Part shown: positions 1-23,847 of the stretch, piece by piece
Position numbering within the stretch: position 1 is the first letter of the stretch
How the letters are laid out: each line of letters begins with the position of its first letter
Assembly (NCBI GenBank): GCA_050287845.1
Contig: JBNKCR010000024.1
Location: 1 to 24,142 of the forward strand
DNA: 24,142 nt
Direction: 5' to 3'
DNA from: Polyangia bacterium
Lineage (GTDB): Bacteria > Myxococcota_A > Polyangia > JAAYKL01
The notes under the pieces: generated by a model
The model's database searches: none
The model's input: the letters and a program-made list of their open reading frames with translations, nothing else
Told to the model about the DNA's origin: nothing
Translations under genes and position numbers: made by a program

Positions 1-113
1 CGCGGGAATACGAGCAGCTTTGCTGCGCGCCCGCAAGGCCCGACCGAGGTGTAGCCATAGCTACATCGACCGAGGGACTGAGGACGAAAGCGCAAAGATG
101 GCGAATTACTGCG
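1..113. repeat. Imperfect palindromic intergenic element (MITE/REPIN-like), probably truncated by the window edge
   Basis: 1-23 CGCGGGAATACGAGCAGCTTTGC pairs imperfectly with 92-113 (reverse complement CGCAGTAATTCGCCATCTTTGC). There is an internal hairpin TGTAGC-cata-GCTACA (50-65). It shares TTTGCTGCGC...GCAAGGCnCGA with the element at the right end. Confidence 0.55.
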
Positions 114-122
114 ATTGCAGCA

Positions 123-366
123 ATGAAACTGTTTGGAATGCTGTTGGGAATCCTTTTACGACGTGGCATTGGCCTGGGAGCTGGCTTTTGCGATTGATTT
201 GAAAATAATCGACATCACACTGGACGCGCGATTTTCCGCCAATCTCACCCTGCCCAAAAGCTATTTTAACCGCAACCACTTATCCAATGGAAACAGCACC
301 GTCGAAACAGAAGCCGCCCACGGTGTGGATGTACGAATCCTCGCCGGCGCCACCTGCGTCTTTTGA
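123..366 (+). pseudogene. Possible frameshifted remnant of an outer-membrane/secreted protein
   Basis: Frame 3 reads MKLFGMLLGILLRRGIGLGAGF and stops at 195-197. Deleting one T of the T4 run at 186-189 joins it to AIDLKIIDITLDARFSANL...VDVRILAGATCVF*, which has alternating hydrophobic residues and a terminal Phe. Confidence 0.3.
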
Positions 367-473
367 AGATAACATGCAGGATACGTATTCACCGCCGGCA
401 AGTGATTGTCAAACCATTCTCGCCACATAACGTTCTTCTGATTTAAATTTTAAAACCGTGCAGAAGGAATCTG

Positions 474-1709
474 TCAGCCCATGTTTCTGAGAATATGGTC
501 GGCGGCCAGACGCACTTCGGCGGAAAACAGTCCGGAGGGAGGAGAGGAGGACGGCTGGGGGCGCAGACCACGGGTAGAGAATGCCGGTTTCTCAGCAACT
601 TTTATCGGAGGTGCGGTAATGACGGCTTCTAAATCCTTTTCGAGAAAGTTCCACTGTTTGGCATCGAGCACCAGTACCAGGCGTCCGCTGTGAAGCCACG
701 GCGCAGTGGACGCCGGGGGAATGGCGTATATGGGACCTCGGGATGCCAGCTGATGCACCTCTTCCAGGGACAGCCGTCTGCCATTCACTGTTTCAAACGC
801 CCGCACGCCAACAATGTAATTGCGATCTTTGGTTTCCAGAAACCTATCGAATAGCACCTCCACCGCGCGTTGCTTCTGTTCTGCACGCAGGTTTTCCACT
901 GCAGCGCCCAGCTTGAGGTACAGACTCCGAACCACCGTACGCAATTGTCTCAAATCTTCAATGTCGTGTCGGCTGTCCACCACCGCGTGATACAGTAATC
1001 CGAATGCCGGCTGTTTCAACGAATCCTTTACGATGACCCCATGCCGCAGAACAATCTGTCTGACAAAATCGCTTTTCAACGGAATACCCACCACGCCCCG
1101 GATGTCCCCCAACTCGAATGGTTGCTGAATAAAACAGTCGGGCAACACCAACCCCTCCGAAACCAGACTGCCGTTCAGGTACACCGGCACCGCCGCATGA
1201 CGACACGCATTTCCAACCACGGATGCCAATGCGCTCGCATCAATCTTTGGGCTGGAAACCTCAATGGCGGTCAATGGGGGTGACGTGGTTGGAAGAATGC
1301 TGGGGTCCCGGACATTCAGCAACGCGTGTCTGCTTCGCGTCACCTGCAAATCGGCAGCACTGGAGGAAATTTTCACCACCGCATTCTTCAGATAGAATGC
1401 ACACAGCAATTCAAATGATTTGCTGCTTTCCATGGAAACAATCGCCTGATGTCTGGCATCCAATGCATGGGATACGTCGAAAACGATACTGAGACGTCGC
1501 AGGGCTTCAATCTCAATCTGCATTCCTTTCGCGCGAATACTCAGATGTCCTCTGGTGATTTTAATTTCCACACGCGTGGCGTCGCAGCTGATCAGATGAC
1601 GGCAAAGGGATACCGCCCACTCCGTACTCGACTTGAACCGGTTCTGCGTCAGTTTGCGAATCTCCAGCGCCACATCAATTTTCAGCAGGGATGCGCGGTG
1701 TTGGGTCAT
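474..1709 (-). CDS. Hypothetical protein, probable degenerate GHKL/HSP90-like ATPase fold (411 aa)
   Basis: Long ORF whose ATG overlaps the upstream stop (ATGA, 1706-1709). The N-terminal pattern EWAVSLCRHLISCDATRVEI...SIRAKGMQI follows GHKL N-box/G1-box spacing but lacks the E/N/D and DxGxG residues. Confidence 0.6.
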   Translation of the reverse strand: MTQHRASLLKIDVALEIRKLTQNRFKSSTEWAVSLCRHLISCDATRVEIKITRGHLSIRAKGMQIEIEALRRLSIVFDVSHALDARHQAIVSMESSKSFELLCAFYLKNAVVKISSSAADLQVTRSRHALLNVRDPSILPTTSPPLTAIEVSSPKIDASALASVVGNACRHAAVPVYLNGSLVSEGLVLPDCFIQQPFELGDIRGVVGIPLKSDFVRQIVLRHGVIVKDSLKQPAFGLLYHAVVDSRHDIEDLRQLRTVVRSLYLKLGAAVENLRAEQKQRAVEVLFDRFLETKDRNYIVGVRAFETVNGRRLSLEEVHQLASRGPIYAIPPASTAPWLHSGRLVLVLDAKQWNFLEKDLEAVITAPPIKVAEKPAFSTRGLRPQPSSSPPSGLFSAEVRLAADHILRNMG

Positions 1710-4675
1710 TTCAGGTGCTCCCGGTTGTCATGCACTGGAGCGGATATCCGTGCCAGAGATTGTCGGAGTTCATTTCGTGCTTCATCAAATATCGCGCAAT
1801 GGGCGATAATGCGATCGAGCAGCAACGCTGCAGCATCCTGTGGACTTCCCCCAAGCGATACCAGAGACTCCCATGCAGATTCGTTGGCCAGCGACAATGC
1901 AACAAACTGGTCCGGAATATTTTTTCGCCATTGCATCGGCAATGGGGTCAAATCGAATTCCCGAAACAGCATGCCCGTCAAACCCCGGCAGGGAACAATC
2001 AGATTGGACGGCAATCCCAGCGACGCCGTCAGCGTCGAGAGATGCCGGCATACACTGTTTGACATCGACTCATCGTCGCCAGCTGCCGGAATATCCTCAG
2101 GATGCACGCCATCGATTTCTTCGACATTCAGGCTGCCAGCCAGTCGACTGACCACCGGCGCAAACTCCGGTCTTCCGGTTTTCACCACAGTCCCCTTCTC
2201 TGAAACGATGCGCTGGACCAGCGGATTTTCAAATTCGCTGTAAAACAGTTTCCGCTTTCTGGCCAGCTTCAGCGCGCGATTCATGGTAATCCGAGTGGCA
2301 TTCCAGGTGGGAATCAATGGCCGGGAAAATAATGCACTGCCGCGAATCTTCATTTTTTCATTCTCAAGGGCAGCCTGAAGCATCTGTGCGGCCAGTTTTT
2401 CCTGGGCATCAGTGGGAGATGGCGGCGAGGTCCGAAACACCCGGCGCACCAGCAGGCCAATAATGATCAGAATCAGCATCCCCACACCGATGCTGGCCCA
2501 TACCAGACGTTCCCGCGTCACTTCCGGCGACGATGACGCAATCACATCGGTCGCTTTTCTGATAGTCGAATCCGCGGGATGTGTTACCGGATCCGGCCGT
2601 ACCGAACTGGCCGCACTATCCATGGGCAACGGTCGGGGCTGGCTGGCGGGAACATCTCCTTCTTCACCGGCTGCCTCCTCCGCAGATTCCGGTGCCCGGC
2701 CGGTGGCATCCGCCAATTTCCAGCCTTCATAAAAATACTCGACCCAGGCATGCTTTCCCGTTTCTGTCCGTCCATTGTTTCCCACATATCCTATCGCCAG
2801 CCGGGCGGGGATTTTCAGTCTGCGAAGCAGATTGATGAGAATGATGTTTTTCACATCACAATCTCCCTTGTTCAACGCAAACACAAAGTCATACCAGTTC
2901 CGACTGACATCCGCCCCGAAGAACTCCCGGTATTTTTCAACCGTCTCCGGTGATGTATCGTACAGAATGGACTGCTCTACCAGCACCGTCAGCATCTGCA
3001 CCTTTTTTTCGACGGAGCTGAATTCCCGTGCCTTTTCGAGGGCGTTTTCGTACGCGCCCGGCAACCTGATTCGGGGATACCCCAGAAAGCGCTCCGCATC
3101 GGTGAGTCCGGTCACCACCGGCCCCGCACGATATTGAATCCGCGGGGACGTCGTGCCCTCATAAAATCGCTGCACAAACAGCCAGTCGTCCTTGCTGGAA
3201 CGAACCAACTCTCCCGCCACGTTTTCGGTATGTACGAGAGTGTCTTTATCTATATAGTATCCAGTGGGCACCGGCAGATGATATACGCCTGTCCCTGGCT
3301 CCAGCATCACTGAAATCTCCAGACAGTGGTCCGGGCAATGATACTCGGCGGGAATCCGATATGGTGTCAGTCGCCCCGATTTGGCACCGCTTCCGGTATG
3401 CAGCTGCTCAACCGTCTGCAATCTGAAGTACGGAGATTCACTCGCCGGGGCATATGTCATATCCAACCCATCACCGGTGTCGGTGTCAGTGGTGGCCTTC
3501 TGATACTCCCCGGAGATGGACGCCCCCCCCATATACGCCGGGAGAAAAGACACATCGCTGTTTTCATCGCGCACAGCGGCGTCGTACATATTTTTCAGTT
3601 CACCGGGAAACAGCAACCCACCGGCAGTACCGAGCACCAGAAGAACAACGAAGATCGGCCACAAAGGCAGAACTCTTCTGGCAAAATGGTAGAGAAAGTC
3701 TTCTGAGAGCGACGAGAAGAAGTATTCCAGGCGGCCCAGTATTCCGGGCGGTGCGATACCATCGAGATACCCTGCGACCAGCTTTCGCATTTCGCGGCCG
3801 GCAATCCGGCGCGTCTGCTGCAGAGCAGTGTCATCGAACACCGACCGTCGGTCCAGGGTCACGCTGAGCTTGTTGCCATTGAGCAGATATACCGGCGCCA
3901 ATCCCCGAGGATAGGAAACCGGCAGCTCTGGCGCGGCACCGTACTGCAACTCCGAAAGCGATGTCCCGAACCATACCGGCAATCCCCGCACATGCAGGCT
4001 GACCTGAGGCGACTTGCCAAGAGCCACTGCCCCCTGCACATCCCGGTAAGCAAAGGTGGCGGCACATTCCCCCTCCAGCACCATGGGGCCATCAATTCGT
4101 TTCTGGTTGTAATGGACCTCAAGAGGGCTGGCCCGCCGGTTGTTGCGACGCAGAAATCGGCAATATCGACGCAGGGACCGCTCAATATCCAGCAGACACT
4201 GTTCCGCCTGCTCGCGGGTAAAATGCTTGTACGCCACTACCCGGGTACCCCGGGAGGCAAGCGGCGACTCAACGACCCGCTCCCGTTCCAGGGTCTGATT
4301 GAATTCCACCCCCCAATTTTCCCGGTCCGTTTTTGAATAAATCAATATGCGCTGTGGCGAAAAAAGAAGAATTGACCAGAATCCCACACCGAACTGACCG
4401 GCGCTGGCCGCCTCTTTTTCTTTGCTGGATGCGTAGAGTGTAAACAGATACCTTCGGGCATGCTCAAAGGCCATCCCCGAGCCGTCATCAGTGAATGTCA
4501 GTTCCAGGGTTCCGGAATCCTCCGACTCCCCGGCATGGAAGGTGGTTGAAACGGAAATCCTTCTGGCGCCGGCATCTCTGGCATTCTGGGCGAACTCGCG
4601 CACAAAGACATATTCGTCCTTGCCGTATCGTTTTCCCTCCGCAATGGCTCTGGACCTGAAGTCAGAAAAGTCCAA
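1706..4675 (-). CDS. GHKL (HSP90-like) ATPase fused to a TM-flanked transglutaminase-like domain (989 aa)
   Basis: N-box VREFAQNARDA (E27, N31, D34), G1 DDGSG (63-67), G2 GQFGVG (93-98) and RGT motif. Hydrophobic helices at about 335-356 and 724-743. Transglutaminase-like triad: GDC606, H642AW, D656AT. TTG start. Confidence 0.85.
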   Translation of the reverse strand: MDFSDFRSRAIAEGKRYGKDEYVFVREFAQNARDAGARRISVSTTFHAGESEDSGTLELTFTDDGSGMAFEHARRYLFTLYASSKEKEAASAGQFGVGFWSILLFSPQRILIYSKTDRENWGVEFNQTLERERVVESPLASRGTRVVAYKHFTREQAEQCLLDIERSLRRYCRFLRRNNRRASPLEVHYNQKRIDGPMVLEGECAATFAYRDVQGAVALGKSPQVSLHVRGLPVWFGTSLSELQYGAAPELPVSYPRGLAPVYLLNGNKLSVTLDRRSVFDDTALQQTRRIAGREMRKLVAGYLDGIAPPGILGRLEYFFSSLSEDFLYHFARRVLPLWPIFVVLLVLGTAGGLLFPGELKNMYDAAVRDENSDVSFLPAYMGGASISGEYQKATTDTDTGDGLDMTYAPASESPYFRLQTVEQLHTGSGAKSGRLTPYRIPAEYHCPDHCLEISVMLEPGTGVYHLPVPTGYYIDKDTLVHTENVAGELVRSSKDDWLFVQRFYEGTTSPRIQYRAGPVVTGLTDAERFLGYPRIRLPGAYENALEKAREFSSVEKKVQMLTVLVEQSILYDTSPETVEKYREFFGADVSRNWYDFVFALNKGDCDVKNIILINLLRRLKIPARLAIGYVGNNGRTETGKHAWVEYFYEGWKLADATGRAPESAEEAAGEEGDVPASQPRPLPMDSAASSVRPDPVTHPADSTIRKATDVIASSSPEVTRERLVWASIGVGMLILIIIGLLVRRVFRTSPPSPTDAQEKLAAQMLQAALENEKMKIRGSALFSRPLIPTWNATRITMNRALKLARKRKLFYSEFENPLVQRIVSEKGTVVKTGRPEFAPVVSRLAGSLNVEEIDGVHPEDIPAAGDDESMSNSVCRHLSTLTASLGLPSNLIVPCRGLTGMLFREFDLTPLPMQWRKNIPDQFVALSLANESAWESLVSLGGSPQDAAALLLDRIIAHCAIFDEARNELRQSLARISAPVHDNREHLK

Positions 4676-4711
4676 ACCAAACCCTTTCTTTTCAACCGCT
4701 CCATCCGCGGT

Positions 4712-6601
<1,890 letters not shown>

Positions 6602-6651
6602 CTGTCTTCTTTATCTGTTCTTTCTCGCGCAAACCTGCAAAACCGTCAACA

Positions 6652-7560
6652 TCACAGGGGATGGTCCATATCCCTGTGATATTTATTCACTTCTCTTTTC
6701 TGTTCCTCATAATGCAAGGCCAGTCGTCTGGCAAATGCCACAGAACGATGCCGTCCACCGGTGCATCCCACCGCGATATTCACGGAAAATTTTCCGACAT
6801 CGATAAACGCATCAAATGTTGGATCCAACAGCTGTATCATGCCCTGGAAAAACCGTTCCGCGGCCTCCATGTGCATCACATACTCATACACATCCGCATC
6901 CTCCCCTGTCAGGGGCCGAAGCGCTTCCCGGTAGAACGGATTGGGCAGGAACCGCACATCGAACACAAAGTCCGCGTCCCTCGGCACACCATATTTAAAT
7001 CCGAAACTCACAATATTCACCTGAGACACCCGGCTGGTATCCCGCTGAAGCACTGTCTGCAATACCGCATGACGCAGTTGCGTGGCATTGATATGCGTTG
7101 AATCCAGCACGTGCGTCGCCAGTGCGAGTGTACCCGCAAGACGTGTGCGCTCCTCGGTAATGGCGCGGCGCAGGGAATACTGCGGCTCCAGCGGATGGCT
7201 TCGCCGGACTTCCTTGAATCGGTTCATCAGCACATCGGTTTCACAGTCCAGATATACCAGTGCAAAATGGATGGACTCATCCCGAAGGCGCTGCACTGCA
7301 TTCTGAAAATCATCAAACAGCGTTCCGGAACGCATATCGCTGGCGATGGCGATACCCTTCCGGTGAACGGTGCCACTCATGTAAAGATGATAGAAATCCA
7401 GAATGAGGGTAGGCGGAAGATTGTCGAGACAATAATACCCCAAATCATCAAATACCCGCATGGCGGTTGATTTTCCGGCGCCGGAAAGCCCCGTGATAAT
7501 AACCAGCATCGGTGCTGCGGGTGGAATACTTGATTTGGTGGTTTCGACGCGCGCGTCCAT
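6652..7560 (-). CDS. rapZ: RNase adapter RapZ (YhbJ/YvcJ family P-loop protein)
   Basis: ITGLSGAGKS, YYCLDNLP, DMRS, RRSHPL, SFGFKYG..DADFVFDVRFLPNP, GCTGGRHRSV. Confidence 0.95.
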   Translation of the reverse strand: MDARVETTKSSIPPAAPMLVIITGLSGAGKSTAMRVFDDLGYYCLDNLPPTLILDFYHLYMSGTVHRKGIAIASDMRSGTLFDDFQNAVQRLRDESIHFALVYLDCETDVLMNRFKEVRRSHPLEPQYSLRRAITEERTRLAGTLALATHVLDSTHINATQLRHAVLQTVLQRDTSRVSQVNIVSFGFKYGVPRDADFVFDVRFLPNPFYREALRPLTGEDADVYEYVMHMEAAERFFQGMIQLLDPTFDAFIDVGKFSVNIAVGCTGGRHRSVAFARRLALHYEEQKREVNKYHRDMDHPL

Positions 7561-7588
7561 TCAGGCTCCGGAAATGCGTTTGAGACGC

Positions 7589-8359
7589 TCACTCATCGGC
7601 AAAATCGTCGTCTTCGGTGTATTGATAATCAAAATCGCCAAATTCATCGCTGCCGAATTCGGCGATCACTTTCTTCAGATTACGCGCATCATCGAGGGCC
7701 CGATGCGTATCAAACAGGCAGAATACTTCTCCTGCGGGGCAATCAAACGCTGCAGCCGCAATCTGTTCCAGCTCATACACGCCCATGCGGGAGCCGGACG
7801 CCGCGAATGCACCAAACCGGAAGTACGCAAGGTCAAAGTCGGGGACTTCATCTCTGAGCGGGTCAACGGCAGGAATCAGATTGTTGTTTTCTGCAAACTG
7901 CATTATCTGACCGAATTCCCATGGTCCATGAGCCTCCCACACCAGTGGCATATTTCCCCGATCAACGGTTTTGAAAAAATTCGACATCTTATCGATATTG
8001 GTCTGAGATGGTGTGATTGATGAAGGCGTCATCAGCACCAGGGCCCGGGCCTCCAATTCTGCGGCAAACTGCAACTGACGCTGCCACAGACTCAAGCTCT
8101 CATCGGTTACCTGAAAATTGCCATATGCCGATAAATCACCGCGAAGGGTGATGCCTTCATCCGGCGCCGTCACGAAAAATCTCGATACCTGCACTGTGCA
8201 CCCGGTATTCGCCGGCAACTCATCTTTCAGATGACGCGCAGCCTTTTTTCCAGGCGGAATATATCTGGCTTCCGTCATCTCCACCAGATCCACATCCGCA
8301 ATCATTTTGCTTTTCTTAATGGGATACCCGACGGTACCCACTGATATTTTTTCTGTCAT
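7589..8359 (-). CDS. DUF72 (YecE-like) domain protein with acidic C-terminal tail
   Basis: ISVGTVGY, LVEMTEARYIPP, LMTPSS, VWEAHGPW, VDPL and YFRFG match the DUF72 pattern in degenerate form. Start placed at ATG 8359, 1 nt after the upstream stop; the ORF track extends it to 8395. Confidence 0.75.
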   Translation of the reverse strand: MTEKISVGTVGYPIKKSKMIADVDLVEMTEARYIPPGKKAARHLKDELPANTGCTVQVSRFFVTAPDEGITLRGDLSAYGNFQVTDESLSLWQRQLQFAAELEARALVLMTPSSITPSQTNIDKMSNFFKTVDRGNMPLVWEAHGPWEFGQIMQFAENNNLIPAVDPLRDEVPDFDLAYFRFGAFAASGSRMGVYELEQIAAAAFDCPAGEVFCLFDTHRALDDARNLKKVIAEFGSDEFGDFDYQYTEDDDFADE

Positions 8360-8360
8360 T

Positions 8361-9386
8361 TCAGGGAAATCCAACTCCTGCGATATTCCATCCACACCTG
8401 GGACATCTGCTTTGTTCAGTGTTTATCCGATTCACTCTATAACCGGTTCTCTCCACAACCACGTTCCGGCAGTTTGGGCAACAGGTTTTTTCACCTTGCC
8501 CGGTGGGCATATTACCCGCATATACATAACGCAATCCTGCCGCTGCGCCAATTTCCAATGCGCTTAAAATCATTTTCCCATCGGTCGGAGGCCGCGTTGT
8601 CTCTTTGAACGCCGGGTGAAATCTGGATACATGCCAGGGGATGTCTGGTGAAACCCCTGCGATAAACTGCGCAATTTCGGTAAGTTCCGATGCACTATCG
8701 TTCATTCCCGGCACCACCAGCGTGGTAACTTCCACCCATACACCCCGGTCGTGCATCAGGACAATCGCGTCCAGAGTGGCCGACAGACGTCCCTTCAACT
8801 GTGTACGATATACGTCCTGTGAAAAACTTTTCAAATCAATATTGGCGGCATCCAGATGTTCGCAAAGCCCAAGTAATGGATCACGATTAATTTGTCCATT
8901 GGTCACAAACACCAGTCTCAGCAAATGCTCCCGGGCGAGGGTCGCCACTTCTAAAGCGAATTCCGTTGCAAGAACCGGCTCCGAGTACGTGAATGCAATA
9001 GAAGCACAGTGAGAATTTATCGCCTCATGAATCACTTCTTCCGGCGTCCATTGCCGAATGGGGTCAGGTGAGTAGCCCGGCATCCGCGTACATTGTGAAA
9101 GCGATGCATTCTGGCAGAAGGGACACACCAGATTGCACCCCTCGGTTCCCAGCGAAAAAGTTCGCGTGCCCGGCAAAAAATGACTGAAGGGCTTTTTTTC
9201 GATGGGATCCACCGCCACTGAGGCAAATCTACCCCACGTGAGAATTTCCAGGCGACCATCTGAATTGGCCCGGGTGCCGCATATCCCCCGTTTTCCCGGA
9301 GCCAACACACATTGCGCCGGACACAGGGTACATCGTACTTTGTGTGCAGATTCGGACCTTGAAAACTCGCTGTATCTATGCATCAT
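8361..9386 (-). CDS. amrS: AmmeMemoRadiSam system radical SAM enzyme
   Basis: N-terminal CTLCPAQC...CGTR, VDPIEKKP..HFLPG, radical SAM CNLVCPFCQN, AFTYSEP, ANIDLK, WHVSRFHP, YVYAGN, and C-terminal CPNC/CPRC. Start placed at ATG 9386. Confidence 0.92.
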   Translation of the reverse strand: MMHRYSEFSRSESAHKVRCTLCPAQCVLAPGKRGICGTRANSDGRLEILTWGRFASVAVDPIEKKPFSHFLPGTRTFSLGTEGCNLVCPFCQNASLSQCTRMPGYSPDPIRQWTPEEVIHEAINSHCASIAFTYSEPVLATEFALEVATLAREHLLRLVFVTNGQINRDPLLGLCEHLDAANIDLKSFSQDVYRTQLKGRLSATLDAIVLMHDRGVWVEVTTLVVPGMNDSASELTEIAQFIAGVSPDIPWHVSRFHPAFKETTRPPTDGKMILSALEIGAAAGLRYVYAGNMPTGQGEKTCCPNCRNVVVERTGYRVNRINTEQSRCPRCGWNIAGVGFP

Positions 9387-9435
9387 AAAAACTCTATAGT
9401 TCTCATTTCCTATAATCAATGGAAAATAAATCACT

Positions 9436-9465
9436 ATTTTAACCGACTACTGTTCAAACGTCCAA
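9436..9465 (-). promoter_or_regulatory. Candidate sigma70 promoter for the amrS...GHKL operon
   Basis: Minus strand TTGGAC-N18-TAAAAT in the AT-rich divergent intergenic region. Confidence 0.35.
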
Positions 9466-9560
9466 GTTGACCCGTCGTTAAATTCGCACAAAATAGTTGA
9501 TAAATAAAATGGGCCGTTTAAGATCGGCAGCTGCACACTTTTTTGGGAGTACGAAACTTT

Positions 9561-10529
9561 ATGACCGTCAAAGCGGGCATTGTTTGCGGAAAATGTGACC
9601 AGTTAAATTCGGTAGACAGCCGGGAATGCAGCGCCTGTGGGAGTAGCCTTGAACTCTCTGCAGTCGGAACCGGAGCCGCGAGCGGTGCAGATTCAAACGA
9701 TAATGTTGAACTACAAGAGATAGTTCAAAACGGGAAAGAGGATGACGCTATGGAGCAGGCAAAGCATCTGGTTTGCGGTGAATGCTATACCCCGGTACCC
9801 GCCGGGCACAAATTTTGCGGAAAATGTGGCAGTTCGCTGGAGCACAATATCATCAAAGATCCCAATTTTTTTGGAGAACTTCAGTCTCCTGGAAAGGCAA
9901 AACTGATTCTGATCAAGGGCGAAGGCGTCGATGGCATGAGCTATCATCTCAATTCCACAGAACACACAGCGGGCCGAACTCAGGGAGAAATCGTTTTTCC
10001 TGATGACCCATGGCTGTCTCCTTCCCACGCCAATTTCGTGTACGTGGACGACAAAATCGTGGTTCACGATCAGAACAGTCTGAACGGGATATACGTCGCC
10101 ATCCGTCAGCCGGTCGCCATCAATCCCGGTGCTGTCTTCATGGCAGGGGAGCAGTTGTTCCGCGTGGAATCAGTGGCACCGGTGGAACAGGTTCCCGAAG
10201 ATGATGGGACATACTTTTTTTCAAGCCCGTTTTCAGTGGGAAGTTTTCGAGTTGTTCAGATACTCGAAGGTGGCGGCGATGGAATGATTGTCAATCCCCA
10301 ATCTGATTCCATCACCATTGGCCGCGAGGACTGTGACATGAATTTTCCTGCAGATCCGTTCATCTCCGGAAAGCACGCCCAGATTGAAGCCAACGGCAAC
10401 TCTCTCGTACTCATGGACCTGAACAGTAAAAATGGCACTTTTATAAAAATCAACAATGAGCAGGAACTGACCCACGGCGACTATCTGTTCCTGGGGCGTC
10501 AACTTCTCAGAGTTGAAATTACACAATAG
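9561..10529 (+). CDS. Zinc-ribbon + tandem FHA domain protein
   Basis: CGKC..CSAC and CGEC..FCGKCG ribbons. FHA1 GRTQ...SPSHA...SLNG; FHA2 IGRE...SGKHA...SKNGTF. GGGAG lies upstream of ATG 9561. Confidence 0.88.
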   Translation: MTVKAGIVCGKCDQLNSVDSRECSACGSSLELSAVGTGAASGADSNDNVELQEIVQNGKEDDAMEQAKHLVCGECYTPVPAGHKFCGKCGSSLEHNIIKDPNFFGELQSPGKAKLILIKGEGVDGMSYHLNSTEHTAGRTQGEIVFPDDPWLSPSHANFVYVDDKIVVHDQNSLNGIYVAIRQPVAINPGAVFMAGEQLFRVESVAPVEQVPEDDGTYFFSSPFSVGSFRVVQILEGGGDGMIVNPQSDSITIGREDCDMNFPADPFISGKHAQIEANGNSLVLMDLNSKNGTFIKINNEQELTHGDYLFLGRQLLRVEITQ

Positions 10530-10540
10530 GAGGTCCGAAG

Positions 10541-11611
10541 GTGATTGTTTGTCCGAAATGTTCAAAAGAAAACCAGGACCATTACAAGTTCTGTCTTGGT
10601 TGCGGTTCAGATTTGCCCCGTGCTGAAGTCCCGACCTCCGCAACTCCTCCTGCCGGAATTGCTGCCGCAGAGGTGATGGCGGAAGACGCAATGGATGCGG
10701 GCCACAGGTCCACTCCGGTATCAGATACCGACGATTATAATGCAACATCTCTCGACCCGATGAACCAGGTCGTCGCAGGTTCAACCGGCGGAATGGCACC
10801 AACAACGCCTTCTCCGCCGCCGACCGAAGAAGATTCAGCGCCCGGTCCTTCCGGCACCACCTGTGCCAACTGTGGTGCCGGCATTCCTCCCGGGTTCGCG
10901 TTCTGTGGTTCCTGTGGTACCCCCATTGGCGGACCTGCACCGCATCCCCAGGCGGCGATGCCCGTCAGTGCGCAGCAACAGCAGGCTGCTTCACTCATCC
11001 TGATCCAGCCAGATGGCAGCGAAGGCGGTATCGTTGAAATCCCCGATTCCGACGTTGCCGTTGGCCGCGATGCCGGTGGTTTTTTTGAAACCGATGCATA
11101 TCTGTCTCCGCGCCACGCGGTATTCCGTGCGCAGGATGGCCAAATACTATGCAGAGACGAAATCAGTCTGAACGGCGTATTCAAGAAAATCATGCCCAAT
11201 GTCCCGGCAGAAATTAAATCCGGAGATGTATTCCGAATGGGACAGGAACTGGTGCTGTTTGAGGCAATCGACCGTGGTGCGGACGGGCCCGACGGTACAC
11301 GGCGAATGGGCTCGCCCATTGAAGGATTGTGGGGAAGAATCTCGCTTATCGTTGGCAAAGGCCGGCTTGGAAATGCTTTTCCCATTGGCGGAGAGGGCGT
11401 CATCTGCGGGCGGGAACGCGGTAATATTCTGTTCCCCGAAGACGGCTATATCTCCGGCGTCCATATGCGGATTCATTCTGAAAACGGCAAGTATTTCCTC
11501 ACAGATCTGGGTAGCTCCAACGGCAGCTATCTCAGACTGAAAGGCGAAACTGCACTGAATAACGGCGATTTCATTCTGATGGGGGCGCAGTTATTCCGCA
11601 TTCAGACCTGA
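10541..11611 (+). CDS. Zinc-ribbon + Pro/Ala-rich linker + tandem FHA domain protein
   Basis: AGGAGG precedes the GTG start. CPKC..FCLGCG and CANCG..FCGSCG ribbons. FHA1 VGRD...SPRHA...SLNG; FHA2 CGRE...SGVH...SSNGSY. Confidence 0.9.
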   Translation: MIVCPKCSKENQDHYKFCLGCGSDLPRAEVPTSATPPAGIAAAEVMAEDAMDAGHRSTPVSDTDDYNATSLDPMNQVVAGSTGGMAPTTPSPPPTEEDSAPGPSGTTCANCGAGIPPGFAFCGSCGTPIGGPAPHPQAAMPVSAQQQQAASLILIQPDGSEGGIVEIPDSDVAVGRDAGGFFETDAYLSPRHAVFRAQDGQILCRDEISLNGVFKKIMPNVPAEIKSGDVFRMGQELVLFEAIDRGADGPDGTRRMGSPIEGLWGRISLIVGKGRLGNAFPIGGEGVICGRERGNILFPEDGYISGVHMRIHSENGKYFLTDLGSSNGSYLRLKGETALNNGDFILMGAQLFRIQT

Positions 11612-21222: not shown

Positions 21223-23847
21223 ATGGTAACCAGCAAGACTATCAGTTTCATTTTACTGTTGAATTTGACAATTTGTGTAGGATGCACCGAAAGCGGCAAT
21301 GACAGCGTAATAGAAGACACGGACATTGATTTCGGTACAGACGCCGATTCGGACGCCGATTCGGACGCCGATTCAGACATTGGCACCGACGCGCATCCAG
21401 ATAGGGATACGGCGACTGACTCGGATACTGTTGCCGCGTCGGTAATCATCAATGAAGTCATGGCGGCGAACTTCTTTGGTGCAACTGACGAGGACGGCGA
21501 TGTGGAAGACTGGGTCGAGCTGTACAACACCTCAGAGCGCGAGGTGGACCTGTCGGGCTGGGGGCTGTCGAACAAGCCGGCCAGTCCGTTCCGCTGGGTG
21601 TTCCCTTCCGGTACCTCTCTGTGGTCCAAGGCCTACTTGCGGGTATGGTTGTCAAAGAAGGACCGCACCACGAAAAAAAGCAATCTGCACGCCAACTTCA
21701 ACCTCGACAACGGAGAAGACAAGTTGGTGTTGAGCGCTCCGAACGGCGAGGTCTCCGGTGTGGTGATGGACGCGGTGTCGCTCCCATTGACGAGGCCGGA
21801 CGTGTCGTTCTGCCGTCTGCCCAACGGTACGGTAGCGGCAATGTTCCAGCATTGTATCAAACCCACCCCCGGGACCGCCAACAGCGACACCGGTTACCTC
21901 ACAATGCTGGCCAGGCCCGCATTATCAATTGACTCTGGCATCTATGCTACTTCCCAGAGCGTCACCGCCAGCGGACCGGCGGGTGCGCAACTGCGATACA
22001 CCCTTGACGGTAGCGAGCCCAGCGCCACTTCGTCCCTGTACGATGGCCCAATCACGATATCGCGCAACACGACGCTTCGCGTGGCGGCGTTCCGGGATGA
22101 TGCCGTGACCAGCCCGGTAGAAACCGGCACGTACATTATCGACGCGGCTGATCACTACGTCAACCAGCGCGCCATCTTCCTGACGATGTCACCGGATGAC
22201 ATGTCTCACTACAAAGCCGGAGACCGTCCGCCGAAGGGCTGGATCGCACACGCCGCGATGACCGCGCCGGGTGGAGCGCTCCTGTTCAGCGCGCCATTGC
22301 AGGGTAGTGACGCCGGCCAGCTTGGCAGCTACAACGGTCAGGACAACAATCCGATCGACCTGAAGTTCAGGGACGCGCTGGGTACCAGGGATGTGAAGGT
22401 GGCGGGCCTGTTCGCGGCCAAGCCGGGCACTACTCGTTTCAAGCACCTGAAACTGCGTAACAGTGGCGACGACTACTGGTATGCCCATATGCGTGATCAG
22501 TTCTGGCAGGGGATCCTGGAAGACAAGCTGGCCCCGGGAGCGGCGTCGGAGCCGGTGCAGGTGTTCACCAACGGCACCTACTACGGGATGATGGACTTTC
22601 GGGAGAAGGAGGACGAAACGTTGATCACGGCTACCTACGGCGTGGACAAAGACAACGTCCAGTATCTGAACGACAACAAGGAGCTGAGTGGCACCAATAC
22701 CACGGATGACTACCGGGCCGCGCGGGACTATATACTCTGGCACCCGATGGAGGAGGAGGCCAACTACGAGCAGGCCAGGAAGTTGATAGACGTAGAGAAC
22801 TTCGCGCAGTATTTCGCGCTGCACATGTTCGTGGCCGACCGTGACTGGCTGTGGCGCAACATGCACCGCTTCCGCATGCCCGATTACGACGGCCGATGGC
22901 GCTGGCGTCCCCACGACCTGGACATCTCGGCGGGTGGACACAATGCGTGGGGCTACGATACGTCCGTGGATGAGAACATGAATAATTTCTACGGCGATTA
23001 CGACGTCGGAGATCTGATGAACGCATTGCTGGAAAATCCATCGTTCGAGGCGCGTTACATCAACATTGTTGCCGACCAGCTCAACACCACTCTGGCGCCT
23101 GCGGTACTCAACGCCAGGCTCGACGCTATTGCGGCGGAGATGCTGCCGTACATGGAGGTGCACTGGGCGGCGTTTCCCGATGCGACCCGTGGTGGCTCTT
23201 ACGCGCAGTGGAAGAGCAGTATTGATGAGTTGCGCAACTTCCTCAACAACCGCGAAAGCTACTACGACGCCCACACGCGCGACAAGTTCGATCTCAGCGA
23301 ACGCAAGTCACTGACAGTGTCGGTGAACGACCCGGCGATGGGAGCGGTAAAGGTGAATACAATTGATCTCAGCAGCCGTTTGAGCGGCACTGCATTTTCC
23401 TGGACCGGCAGGTACTATCCCGAGGTTCAGGTGATTCTGGAGGCCAGACCCAGGCCCGGCTACGTGTTCGTTGGCTGGGAGGGTGCCAATACCAGCACCA
23501 CTGCCGCCATCAGCGTCAGCGTGGCAACCGACGGCCTGACCTATCAGGCGGTGTTCGCACCGGCGGGCACAGTGGAGGCGCCTGCCGTGGCGACGATTGC
23601 GGCGCAGACCTTTCTTACCGGTGACGTGGTCAGCCTGGATGTGTCGGCCACTGATCCGGCCGGATACGAGCTGAGCTACTCAGCCAGGAAGCTGCCTTCA
23701 GGGCTGTCGATTAGCGTCGATACCGGCCGCATTTACGGTAAACCCACCAGAGGAGGTGCATTCGACAGCACCATCACGGCCACCAACAACAGGGCGGCAA
23801 CGACCATTGATGTCGCCTGGCAGATCACCAACCGGGTGCCCGAATAG
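21223..23847 (+). CDS. CotH kinase-family lipoprotein: lamin-tail domain, Fn3/chitobiase-like domain, CotH, beta-repeat, putative Ig domain (874 aa)
   Basis: Lipobox-like CVG-C21, Asp/Thr-rich linker, LTD (VIINEVMAAN...DWVELYN...VDLSGWGL), LRYTLDGSEP, CotH core (LKLRNSGDD, NGTYYG, RDW..RN, RWRW..DLDIS), ARPRPGYVFVGWEG, LPSGLSI...GRIYGKPT. Confidence 0.88.
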   Translation: MVTSKTISFILLLNLTICVGCTESGNDSVIEDTDIDFGTDADSDADSDADSDIGTDAHPDRDTATDSDTVAASVIINEVMAANFFGATDEDGDVEDWVELYNTSEREVDLSGWGLSNKPASPFRWVFPSGTSLWSKAYLRVWLSKKDRTTKKSNLHANFNLDNGEDKLVLSAPNGEVSGVVMDAVSLPLTRPDVSFCRLPNGTVAAMFQHCIKPTPGTANSDTGYLTMLARPALSIDSGIYATSQSVTASGPAGAQLRYTLDGSEPSATSSLYDGPITISRNTTLRVAAFRDDAVTSPVETGTYIIDAADHYVNQRAIFLTMSPDDMSHYKAGDRPPKGWIAHAAMTAPGGALLFSAPLQGSDAGQLGSYNGQDNNPIDLKFRDALGTRDVKVAGLFAAKPGTTRFKHLKLRNSGDDYWYAHMRDQFWQGILEDKLAPGAASEPVQVFTNGTYYGMMDFREKEDETLITATYGVDKDNVQYLNDNKELSGTNTTDDYRAARDYILWHPMEEEANYEQARKLIDVENFAQYFALHMFVADRDWLWRNMHRFRMPDYDGRWRWRPHDLDISAGGHNAWGYDTSVDENMNNFYGDYDVGDLMNALLENPSFEARYINIVADQLNTTLAPAVLNARLDAIAAEMLPYMEVHWAAFPDATRGGSYAQWKSSIDELRNFLNNRESYYDAHTRDKFDLSERKSLTVSVNDPAMGAVKVNTIDLSSRLSGTAFSWTGRYYPEVQVILEARPRPGYVFVGWEGANTSTTAAISVSVATDGLTYQAVFAPAGTVEAPAVATIAAQTFLTGDVVSLDVSATDPAGYELSYSARKLPSGLSISVDTGRIYGKPTRGGAFDSTITATNNRAATTIDVAWQITNRVPE
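21340..21375 (+). repeat. 12-nt tandem repeat x3 (GACGCCGATTCG) encoding DADS in the lipoprotein linker
   Basis: Units at 21340, 21352 and 21364; the last has one mismatch. Confidence 0.85.

Follow-up and report, generated by a model that had tools for sequence, protein, structure and literature searches.

Hsp90 proteins known to us are soluble homodimers, and engineered Hsp90 heterodimers have been needed to ask whether one ATP site drives the cycle. Here, we describe two adjacent genes, A and B, in a 24,142-nucleotide stretch of DNA (the window; positions 1 to 24,142 of contig JBNKCR010000024.1, GenBank assembly GCA_050287845.1) from a Polyangia bacterium. Gene A (1706..4675, minus strand, TTG start) encodes a 989-amino-acid (aa) Hsp90-like ATPase that is interrupted by a helix / TgpA-like domain / helix insertion, and gene B (474..1709, minus strand) encodes a 411-aa soluble Hsp90-fold pseudo-ATPase, with a start that overlaps the stop of A by 4 bases. 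At the level of sequence and predicted structure, the unit combines an insertion into an Hsp90-like chain, conserved catalytic residues, a dead partner and strict pairing of the two genes. We propose, tentatively and giving it not quite an even chance, that A and B may form a membrane-anchored clamp with one working ATP site, which would present or prepare a client for a predicted periplasmic cysteine enzyme.

All features of A lie on the minus strand. Residues 1-200 (4076..4675) form the GHKL ATP-binding domain, which begins at helix 1 and carries E27, N31, D34, D63-G65-G67, G93-G96-G98 and T144, followed by the first middle (transducer) subdomain with the start of a helical linker (residues 201-330; 3686..4075; invariant R276, codon 3848-3850). 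Predicted transmembrane helix 1 (residues 338-356; 3608..3664; hydropathy 2.26; model helix 312-355) leads to the predicted periplasmic TgpA-like domain (residues 392-664; 2684..3502; PF01841), with C606 at 2858-2860, H642 at 2750-2752 and D656 at 2708-2710. A Pro/Ser/Ala-rich tether of variable length (about residues 665-724; 2504..2683), predicted to be disordered and showing low conservation and many alignment gaps, connects this domain to predicted transmembrane helix 2 (residues 725-743; 2447..2503; hydropathy 2.69), which has basic residues after it. The remainder of the Hsp90-like chain (residues 748-989; 1709..2434) comprises the linker end, a second middle subdomain (~775-855) and a C-terminal dimerisation-type domain (~856-980). 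An earlier reading made by a model from the letters of this DNA alone (the sequence-only reading) had described A as a transmembrane fusion of an intact Hsp90-like GHKL ATPase with a catalytic transglutaminase-like domain, and its account of the parts holds: a Pfam scan places HATPase_c_3 on residues 25-127 (E 6.8e-10) and Transglut_core (PF01841) on residues 595-656 (E 2.7e-8, 34.5 bits vs a cut-off of 23), both over curated cut-offs; all 12 residues that it named in the GHKL boxes and the Cys606-His642-Asp656 triad are where it put them; the N-terminus lacks a hydrophobic stretch, in line with the absence of a signal peptide; and a Kyte-Doolittle mean above 1.6 is reached by just two stretches, whose best windows are 338-356 and 725-743.

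The combination of domains is found widely. Both Pfam domains occur in 118 of the 120 best listed homologues of A (543-1731 aa) out of 480 proteins found. Among 61 aligned, locus-derived orthologues, E27, N31, G65, G67, G93, G96 and G98 and the triad C606, H642 and D656 are present in 61/61, and D63 and T144 in 60/61; in a separate alignment of 121 sequences, the triad is found in 120 and E27/N31 in 119, the remainder being gaps. An intact-looking GHKL ATP site in A is supported by this residue pattern, and ATP hydrolysis is predicted. Of 20 further genomes in the same family, 17 have a strong match to A, each as a single full-length copy. In read run X1, possibly the source of this DNA, one contig spans 300-5803 at flat depth with no joint listed within 474-4675. 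A chimeric join, which the sequence-only reading had named as a danger, is ruled out by the 118/120 homologues, the family genomes and the flat-depth contig, and the fusion of a GHKL ATPase with a transglutaminase-like domain is, as judged from these sequences, real and conserved. Record titles of the 79 best genome loci are mainly Deltaproteobacteria, Myxococcota/Myxococcales, Candidatus Aminicenantes or Acidobacteria, with few others. At three genome loci (L100, L126 and L132), A is split into two open frames inside the periplasmic part.

Profile comparison places the membrane module within an Hsp90-like chain. A profile of a soluble ~550-aa Hsp90-like family, made from 15 sequences of loci L041-L054 in relatives of the source genome, aligns over its residues 21-321 to A 19-321 (probability 100%) and over its residues 331-530 to A 774-959 (96.4-96.9%, E 1.4e-9), and the part of A between the helices reaches 0.6% with no alignment. 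Residues 20-530 of the soluble family align in turn to residues 25-613 of the source genome's own HtpG (99.6%). The AlphaFold2 model of A (mean predicted local distance difference test score (pLDDT) 85.3, predicted template modelling score (pTM) 0.64) overlays with its residues 1-855, spanning the insertion, on the N-terminal and middle domains of Hsc82 (10-524; Z-score 20.7, root-mean-square deviation (rmsd) 5.0, 366 residues), and with its residues 1-980 on an integrative HtpG model (8-626; Z 20.8, rmsd 9.9, 472 residues). Since A 1-321 and 774-959 align to consecutive segments of the soluble family and the model overlays HtpG, profiles and predicted structure together show that a ~450-residue module (helix / TgpA-like domain / helix) interrupts the helical linker that joins the middle subdomains of A. 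The earlier description of a fusion ending in a ~245-aa tail is right that both domains are present, but the arrangement is an insertion into a full-length Hsp90-like protein and not an end-to-end fusion, and the second middle subdomain and C-terminal dimerisation domain in the tail were missed.

The likeness to Hsp90 is one of order and fold at an identity of about 12-17%. A has the canonical N - middle - C arrangement of Hsp90/HtpG, the C-terminal part being assigned through the intermediate profile and the overlay at rmsd ~10. R276, which we take to be the catalytic-loop Arg of the Hsp90 middle domain, is present in 61/61 orthologues and can be traced by alignment, through an Arg of the soluble family, to that of the genome's HtpG, so that the middle-domain Arg appears to be kept. 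A preprint on the Tiamat defence system has the transducer Arg touching the gamma-phosphate in Hsp90 (bioRxiv 10.64898/2026.09.30.754977). The soluble, uninterrupted chain of canonical Hsp90 is not found in A, which has two helices around the insertion in 60/61 orthologues. A scores 25 vs 371 bits against the HtpG NCBIfam cut-offs and 37 vs 455 bits for PRK14083, no score lies above the cut-off of NF003555, NF010683 or PF00183, and there is no PF00183 match. As A falls far below the HtpG cut-offs and a separate, ordinary HtpG is encoded elsewhere in the source genome, A is not the housekeeping Hsp90. Matches of the A tail in the ESM Atlas are under 0.9, and one cluster with 12% PF00183 is a lead only.

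The two flanking parts of A fold as one Hsp90-like unit that needs ATP, and so would lie on the same side of the membrane with the enzyme on the other. Both helices reach a hydropathy of 1.6 in 60/61 orthologues, Lys/Arg counts on the N-terminal side of helix 1 exceed those on its C-terminal side in 46/61 (9 ties, 6 reversed), and the C-terminal side of helix 2 has more than its N-terminal side in 52/61 (6 ties, 3 reversed). This predicted topology, by the positive-inside rule, agrees with the earlier placement of ATPase and tail together on the cytoplasmic side, and we infer that the N- and C-terminal parts of A are cytoplasmic and the enzyme domain periplasmic; the support for the latter location consists of hydropathy and charge bias. 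In a partly conserved Cys pair (window 3323-3335; A 447-451), C447 is present in 44/61 orthologues and C451 in 28/61. These residues possibly form a disulphide, which would fit a periplasmic location.

The enzyme domain resembles TgpA of Pseudomonas aeruginosa (PA2873; PDB 6g49/6g4h), described as having six predicted helices, a DUF3488 region and a periplasmic domain with transglutaminase activity in vitro (PMC3507681). Residues 392-664 of the A model overlay the TgpA periplasmic domain (PDB 6g49) with Z 17.5 (17.4-17.5) and rmsd 3.8 over 240 residues, at 17-18% identity, and the triad C606/H642/D656 aligns with the corresponding TgpA motifs in a weak sequence match (E 0.23). With the PF01841 profile match, the triad and the TgpA periplasmic-domain fold all found, the expected TgpA-type domain between the two helices is borne out by Pfam and by the model. 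The six-helix DUF3488 region of TgpA orthologues has no match in A, which has two helices only. The invariant triad is as expected of a working enzyme, and the domain is likely a cysteine transglutaminase/protease-type enzyme, with activity predicted from sequence and model. A search of shorter proteins returned three relatives of this domain among 820 candidates, all on contigs of <2.5 kb and probably fragments, from which the enzyme subtype seems tied to the ATPase; the search was word-indexed and so does not show absence.

How the two sides of the membrane might communicate depends on the links between helices and enzyme. The sequence-only reading had inferred an ATP-gated trans-envelope enzyme, which would mean that clamp closure moves the helical hairpin and so switches the periplasmic domain directly. 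Such gating would suit a hairpin that leaves the helical linker between the middle subdomains, with one continuous model helix (312-355) running from the cytoplasm through the membrane, as well as the joint invariance of ATPase and enzyme residues in the orthologues and the apparent tie of the enzyme subtype to the ATPase. The links themselves speak against it: pLDDT is <50 at 364-401 and 662-720, both segments are predicted to be disordered, and they are poorly conserved, varying in length and sequence so that helix 2 starts at ~640-910 in different orthologues. An enzyme held on disordered, poorly conserved tethers makes direct mechanical gating less likely, and in a heterodimer with one enzyme domain, gating by the pairing of two enzyme domains would not apply. 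The earlier inference is weakened to this extent, and we regard direct gating as unlikely.

Gene B, the coupled pseudo-ATPase gene immediately downstream of A, was overlooked in the earlier account of the genetic context. B lies behind A in 19/19 relative loci. Of 79 genome loci examined, contig ends cut 9, and B is directly 3' of A in 69 of the 70 that could be tested; of 80 metagenome loci, 38 were cut, and B is directly 3' of A in 39 of the remaining 42, the last three carrying B in the locus but outside the distance window. These sets overlap, and kin are not independent. The A-B overlap is 4 bases in 46/60 pairs, with the B start taken nearest the A stop. Parts of A and B are covered by short contigs from a single RNA run, including one across the junction (1506-1735); contigs in an RNA library are no evidence of transcription. 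At L074 (3558-5157), two short genes that look by eye like a toxin-antitoxin pair follow A and B is not reached; at L147, with match coordinates almost identical to those of L074, B lies ~1.6 kb after A.

B has no significant match in Pfam, NCBIfam or PADLOC, and without a Pfam or NCBIfam match ordinary annotation misses the system. Its nearest ESM Atlas clusters are unnamed, with HATPase_c_3 clusters at 0.94-0.95, and at 50% identity the sizeable partner family comprises 397 cluster representatives with E 1e-30 or better and 1806 at 0.001. The match of B to A covers A 20-322 (97.7%) and continues in register into the A tail (39%; 86.3% with a full-length B reference and a larger alignment), and B 17-487 aligns to the soluble family (98.7%). 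The B model (pLDDT 85.9) overlays with residues 10-368 on chain 91-551 of the TRAP1 N-terminal and middle domains (Z 16.3, rmsd 8.3, 318 residues), so that B is predicted to have the Hsp90 N-terminal and middle fold. The residues of an active GHKL site (the Mg-binding Asn and the glycine boxes) are missing: the Mg-binding N-box Asn is present in 0/61 B proteins and in 1/148 further B-like proteins, and among the latter a complete N box occurs in 0/148 and a G2-like motif in 2/148.

The best-conserved feature of B is an N-terminal [LF]x[IV]D motif, with D12 in 61/61 and 143/148 (the other five being gaps). Residue 1 of A aligns to Hsc82 residue 10 and GRP94 residue 80, and the N-terminal swap strand of Hsp90 is absent in A; residue 1 of B aligns to GRP94 residue 71, nine residues ahead. 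The catalytic Glu is at exactly position 27 in 66/118 homologues of A. From the GRP94 offset (71 vs 80) and the position of Glu27, the first strand is generally missing in A and retained in B. This strand swaps between protomers in closed Hsp90 (PMC4381864).

The strand and the strict pairing invite the reading that B is the second protomer of A. It is fairly unlikely, to our mind, that A instead homodimerises like an ordinary Hsp90, with B acting as a transient dedicated co-chaperone, brake or client adaptor. In favour of such an arrangement, A has every element in cis, including R276 and the C-terminal domain; B in the source genus has lost most of its C-terminal domain yet is still conserved; and B-like partners of the soluble family stand in longer frames, some with repeated segments, as adaptors might. 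But B keeps the whole Hsp90 architecture in most genomes (the full-length match given above), it keeps exactly the swap strand that A lacks, and the overlap of the A stop with the B start suggests matched output of both proteins. In the source genus B measures 402-416 aa vs 480-570 aa in the other loci examined and ends after the first C-terminal-domain helix; this loss of ~100 C-terminal residues is seen in that genus only (window 474-800; L021-L023) and ends in a conserved helix. That B might be a decaying pseudogene was considered and rejected: the genus's three other genomes also have the short form, with its conserved last helix, and window 1-520 holds no trace of the missing C-terminal part. 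Covariation analysis of A against B (92 pairs, effective ~62) did not rise above the periplasmic control; as the within-A control was empty as well, the analysis had no power. The distance matrices of A and B correlate (r 0.90-0.94), which shared descent explains, and the correlation was not used as binding evidence.

Pairs of this kind extend beyond the membrane-anchored form. Soluble active Hsp90-like genes followed by B-like open frames were found in at least nine of the loci examined; at L041-L054 (e.g. L041 4899-12529, L045 4716-9442, L048 1884-7561), an active gene of ~550 aa is followed by a dead paralogue in a much longer frame, in tandem pairs or arrays, and some dead partners have repeated dead segments (L051). 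Ten of the dead-partner frames were scanned, with no GHKL Pfam match and one FHA match. In a sample of 201 genomes from the phylum, 73 have matches to the B profile; many of these matches are weak, and some fall on ordinary GHKL genes. In a quick tree, dead partners of both kinds fall on one side of a branch with 99% support in the Shimodaira-Hasegawa-like approximate likelihood ratio test (SH-aLRT), and A and the soluble family form separate groups; the tree was built by a fallback method and has long branches, dead proteins may attract each other, and two HtpG-like rows were skipped for lacking the cutting motif. The soluble active/dead pair system seems unnamed and seems widespread in the phylum. 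From the soluble pairs and the grouping in the tree, the A-B unit resembles one of these pairs in which the active gene has acquired a membrane enzyme.

Because the soluble pairs lack an enzyme domain, the clamp has a job of its own, and A could then be an outside-in sensor, with the periplasmic domain meeting an envelope substrate and regulating a cytoplasmic clamp that acts on a cytoplasmic client. Two helices around an extracytoplasmic domain above a GHKL module are a sensor-like layout. We hold a sensor role to be quite improbable, since the triad is invariant, as would be expected if the enzyme works, and the flexible tethers of A argue against outside-in signalling too.

The neighbourhood of A and B is ordinary. 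The immediate neighbours of A are an ABC-F gene and gene B, and the upstream genes on the same strand in the window encode an ABC-F protein, RapZ, an unassigned gene product and a radical SAM protein. Neighbour clusters of A-B reflect clade-level synteny of ordinary housekeeping genes; no helicase or methylase genes were found among the 16 neighbour clusters scanned, and a promoter/terminator scan of 1-10000 gave counts near chance and nothing diagnostic. The source genome has 12 Transglut_core matches in all and six DUF58 matches, none of the latter on the window's contig, so that A is not adjacent to a MoxR-DUF58 pair; two operons with MoxR-like ATPase, DUF58 and membrane transglutaminase-like genes lie elsewhere (C105 117866-122214 and C148 104290-108370; MoxR assigned by motif and position, not by family scan).

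In this setting an anti-phage or anti-predator role, also raised by the sequence-only reading, loses ground. The Hsp90-like pair would sense an invader protein and the cysteine enzyme would be the effector, a scheme encouraged by other Hsp90-like/GHL ATPases that serve in defence, according to the Tiamat preprint (bioRxiv 10.64898/2026.09.30.754977), and by related soluble pairs that have several copies per genome and variable long partners. However, A is present as one full-length copy per genome in 17/20 same-family genomes, the neighbours of A-B are housekeeping genes that are stable within clades, PADLOC matches the ATPase domain of A only, to TmtA, and a scan of viral contigs found four loci with matches to A residues 5-164 only. 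These points make a defence role very improbable, and phage carriage of A was likewise rejected as the viral contigs hold ATPase-domain matches only.

Other features of the window concern different genes. Two adjacent paralogues at 9543-11611 (plus strand), each with zinc ribbons and two FHA domains, are divergent from the operon leading to A. A 268-aa gene upstream of RapZ (7589-8395, minus strand) has no Pfam or NCBIfam match, and its pattern is reminiscent of DUF72 proteins. At 21223-23847 (plus strand), where the window reaches its highest G+C content (about 0.60), lies a gene for an 874-aa CotH-kinase-domain protein with lamin-tail, Fn3-associated and Ig-like domains and an Asp-rich N-terminal repeat.

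In the proposed membrane-anchored clamp, both terminal parts of A would be cytoplasmic and the enzyme periplasmic, and B would be the second protomer, its N-terminal strand swapping onto A, which lacks that strand. ATP would close the clamp on a membrane or exported client, and the Cys-His-Asp domain would cross-link, deamidate or cleave the client or an envelope polymer outside, with coupling by co-localisation and hand-over and likely not by a rigid lever through the membrane. The unit would then work like a MoxR-DUF58-transglutaminase operon in which an Hsp90-type pair replaces the AAA+ pair. Several points weigh against this proposal. B of the source genus has lost most of the usual constitutive dimer interface, and A, with its C-terminal domain retained, could form homodimers. 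The A tail alone matches the genome's HtpG weakly (1.8%, in the right register), its link to HtpG depends on the intermediate soluble family and the structure model, and that model has a pTM of 0.64 and a full-length overlay rmsd of ~10. No third gene is common across clades (the largest neighbour cluster covers 13/60 loci, mostly Aminicenantes-labelled), no client or substrate is indicated, and the MoxR-DUF58 analogy is to a system without an established mechanism. The fuller claim, that A-B is a heterodimeric one-ATP membrane Hsp90 machine whose clamp cycle controls or feeds a cysteine enzyme on the far side, is possible but doubtful. If true, it would couple the two sides of the envelope in a new way and stand as the best-anchored example of a broader, undescribed class in which active and dead Hsp90-like genes are paired. 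Evolution appears to have made a one-ATP Hsp90 pair in which the dead protomer retains the swap strand and its partner has the ATP site.

The A-B system appears undescribed in print and is built of known parts. In line with the earlier statement that no characterised protein is known to have this architecture, no description of the A architecture or of the A-B pair was found in the literature searched; supplements of comparative-genomics papers could list it. The term-bearing passages of PMC7159879, PMC3710099, PMC10318531 and the Tiamat preprint do not contain this architecture, and that preprint (bioRxiv 10.64898/2026.09.30.754977) lacks the words 'transglutaminase', 'heterodimer' and 'Myxococc'. 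By its profile scores and predicted domains, A falls outside the orthologues of HtpG and of TgpA and is not a Tiamat; it would be an Hsp90-type clamp carrying a TgpA-type domain.

Compared with the Hsp90 family (HtpG, TRAP1, GRP94 and cytosolic Hsp90), A has the same predicted fold, N - middle - C order, GHKL boxes and middle-domain Arg, but it has a ~450-residue membrane-spanning enzymatic insertion, lacks the N-terminal swap strand and is constantly accompanied by the gene of a dead paralogue. TgpA shares the periplasmic domain fold, the Cys-His-Asp triad, membrane anchoring and an enzyme predicted to lie outside, but has six predicted helices with DUF3488 and no ATPase, whereas A has two helices. 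Defence GHL ATPases (Tiamat/TmtA, sacsin-like proteins, HD- or calcineurin-like-phosphoesterase Hsp90-like proteins, MORC/paraMORC) likewise consist of an ATPase and transducer fused to an effector enzyme; in A, the enzyme is inserted and membrane-separated, and nuclease, DUF3684 and phosphoesterase domains are absent. Weak TmtA and sacsin-domain matches fall on the ATPase domain of A, the TmtA models matching residues 9-127 only, and the Tiamat arrangement of ATPase, DUF3684 and C-terminal nuclease is not seen, with no DUF3684 or nuclease match in A. The soluble active/dead pairs of L041-L054 have the same active-then-dead order, A being homologous to their active member on both sides of the insertion and B grouping with their dead members, but their active member has no membrane helices or enzyme insertion and their dead partners stand in longer frames.

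A functional parallel may be the MoxR (MRP subfamily)-DUF58-transglutaminase operon. MoxR genes are often followed by DUF58 and membrane transglutaminase genes, so that a cytoplasmic ATP-dependent chaperone-type protein, a partner gene and a membrane transglutaminase-like protein occur together as they do in A-B (PMC6803598). The pairing of transglutaminase with chaperone in MoxR-DUF58 operons is still unexplained, and A-B, by putting an Hsp90-like clamp in the inner membrane with an enzyme predicted outside, would give a two-gene setting in which to ask what keeps bacterial membrane transglutaminase-like enzymes in the company of ATP-dependent chaperones. The two systems differ in that the chaperone of A is GHKL/Hsp90-like and not AAA+, is fused to the enzyme and has a dead paralogue instead of DUF58 as its partner, and their chaperone parts are not homologous.

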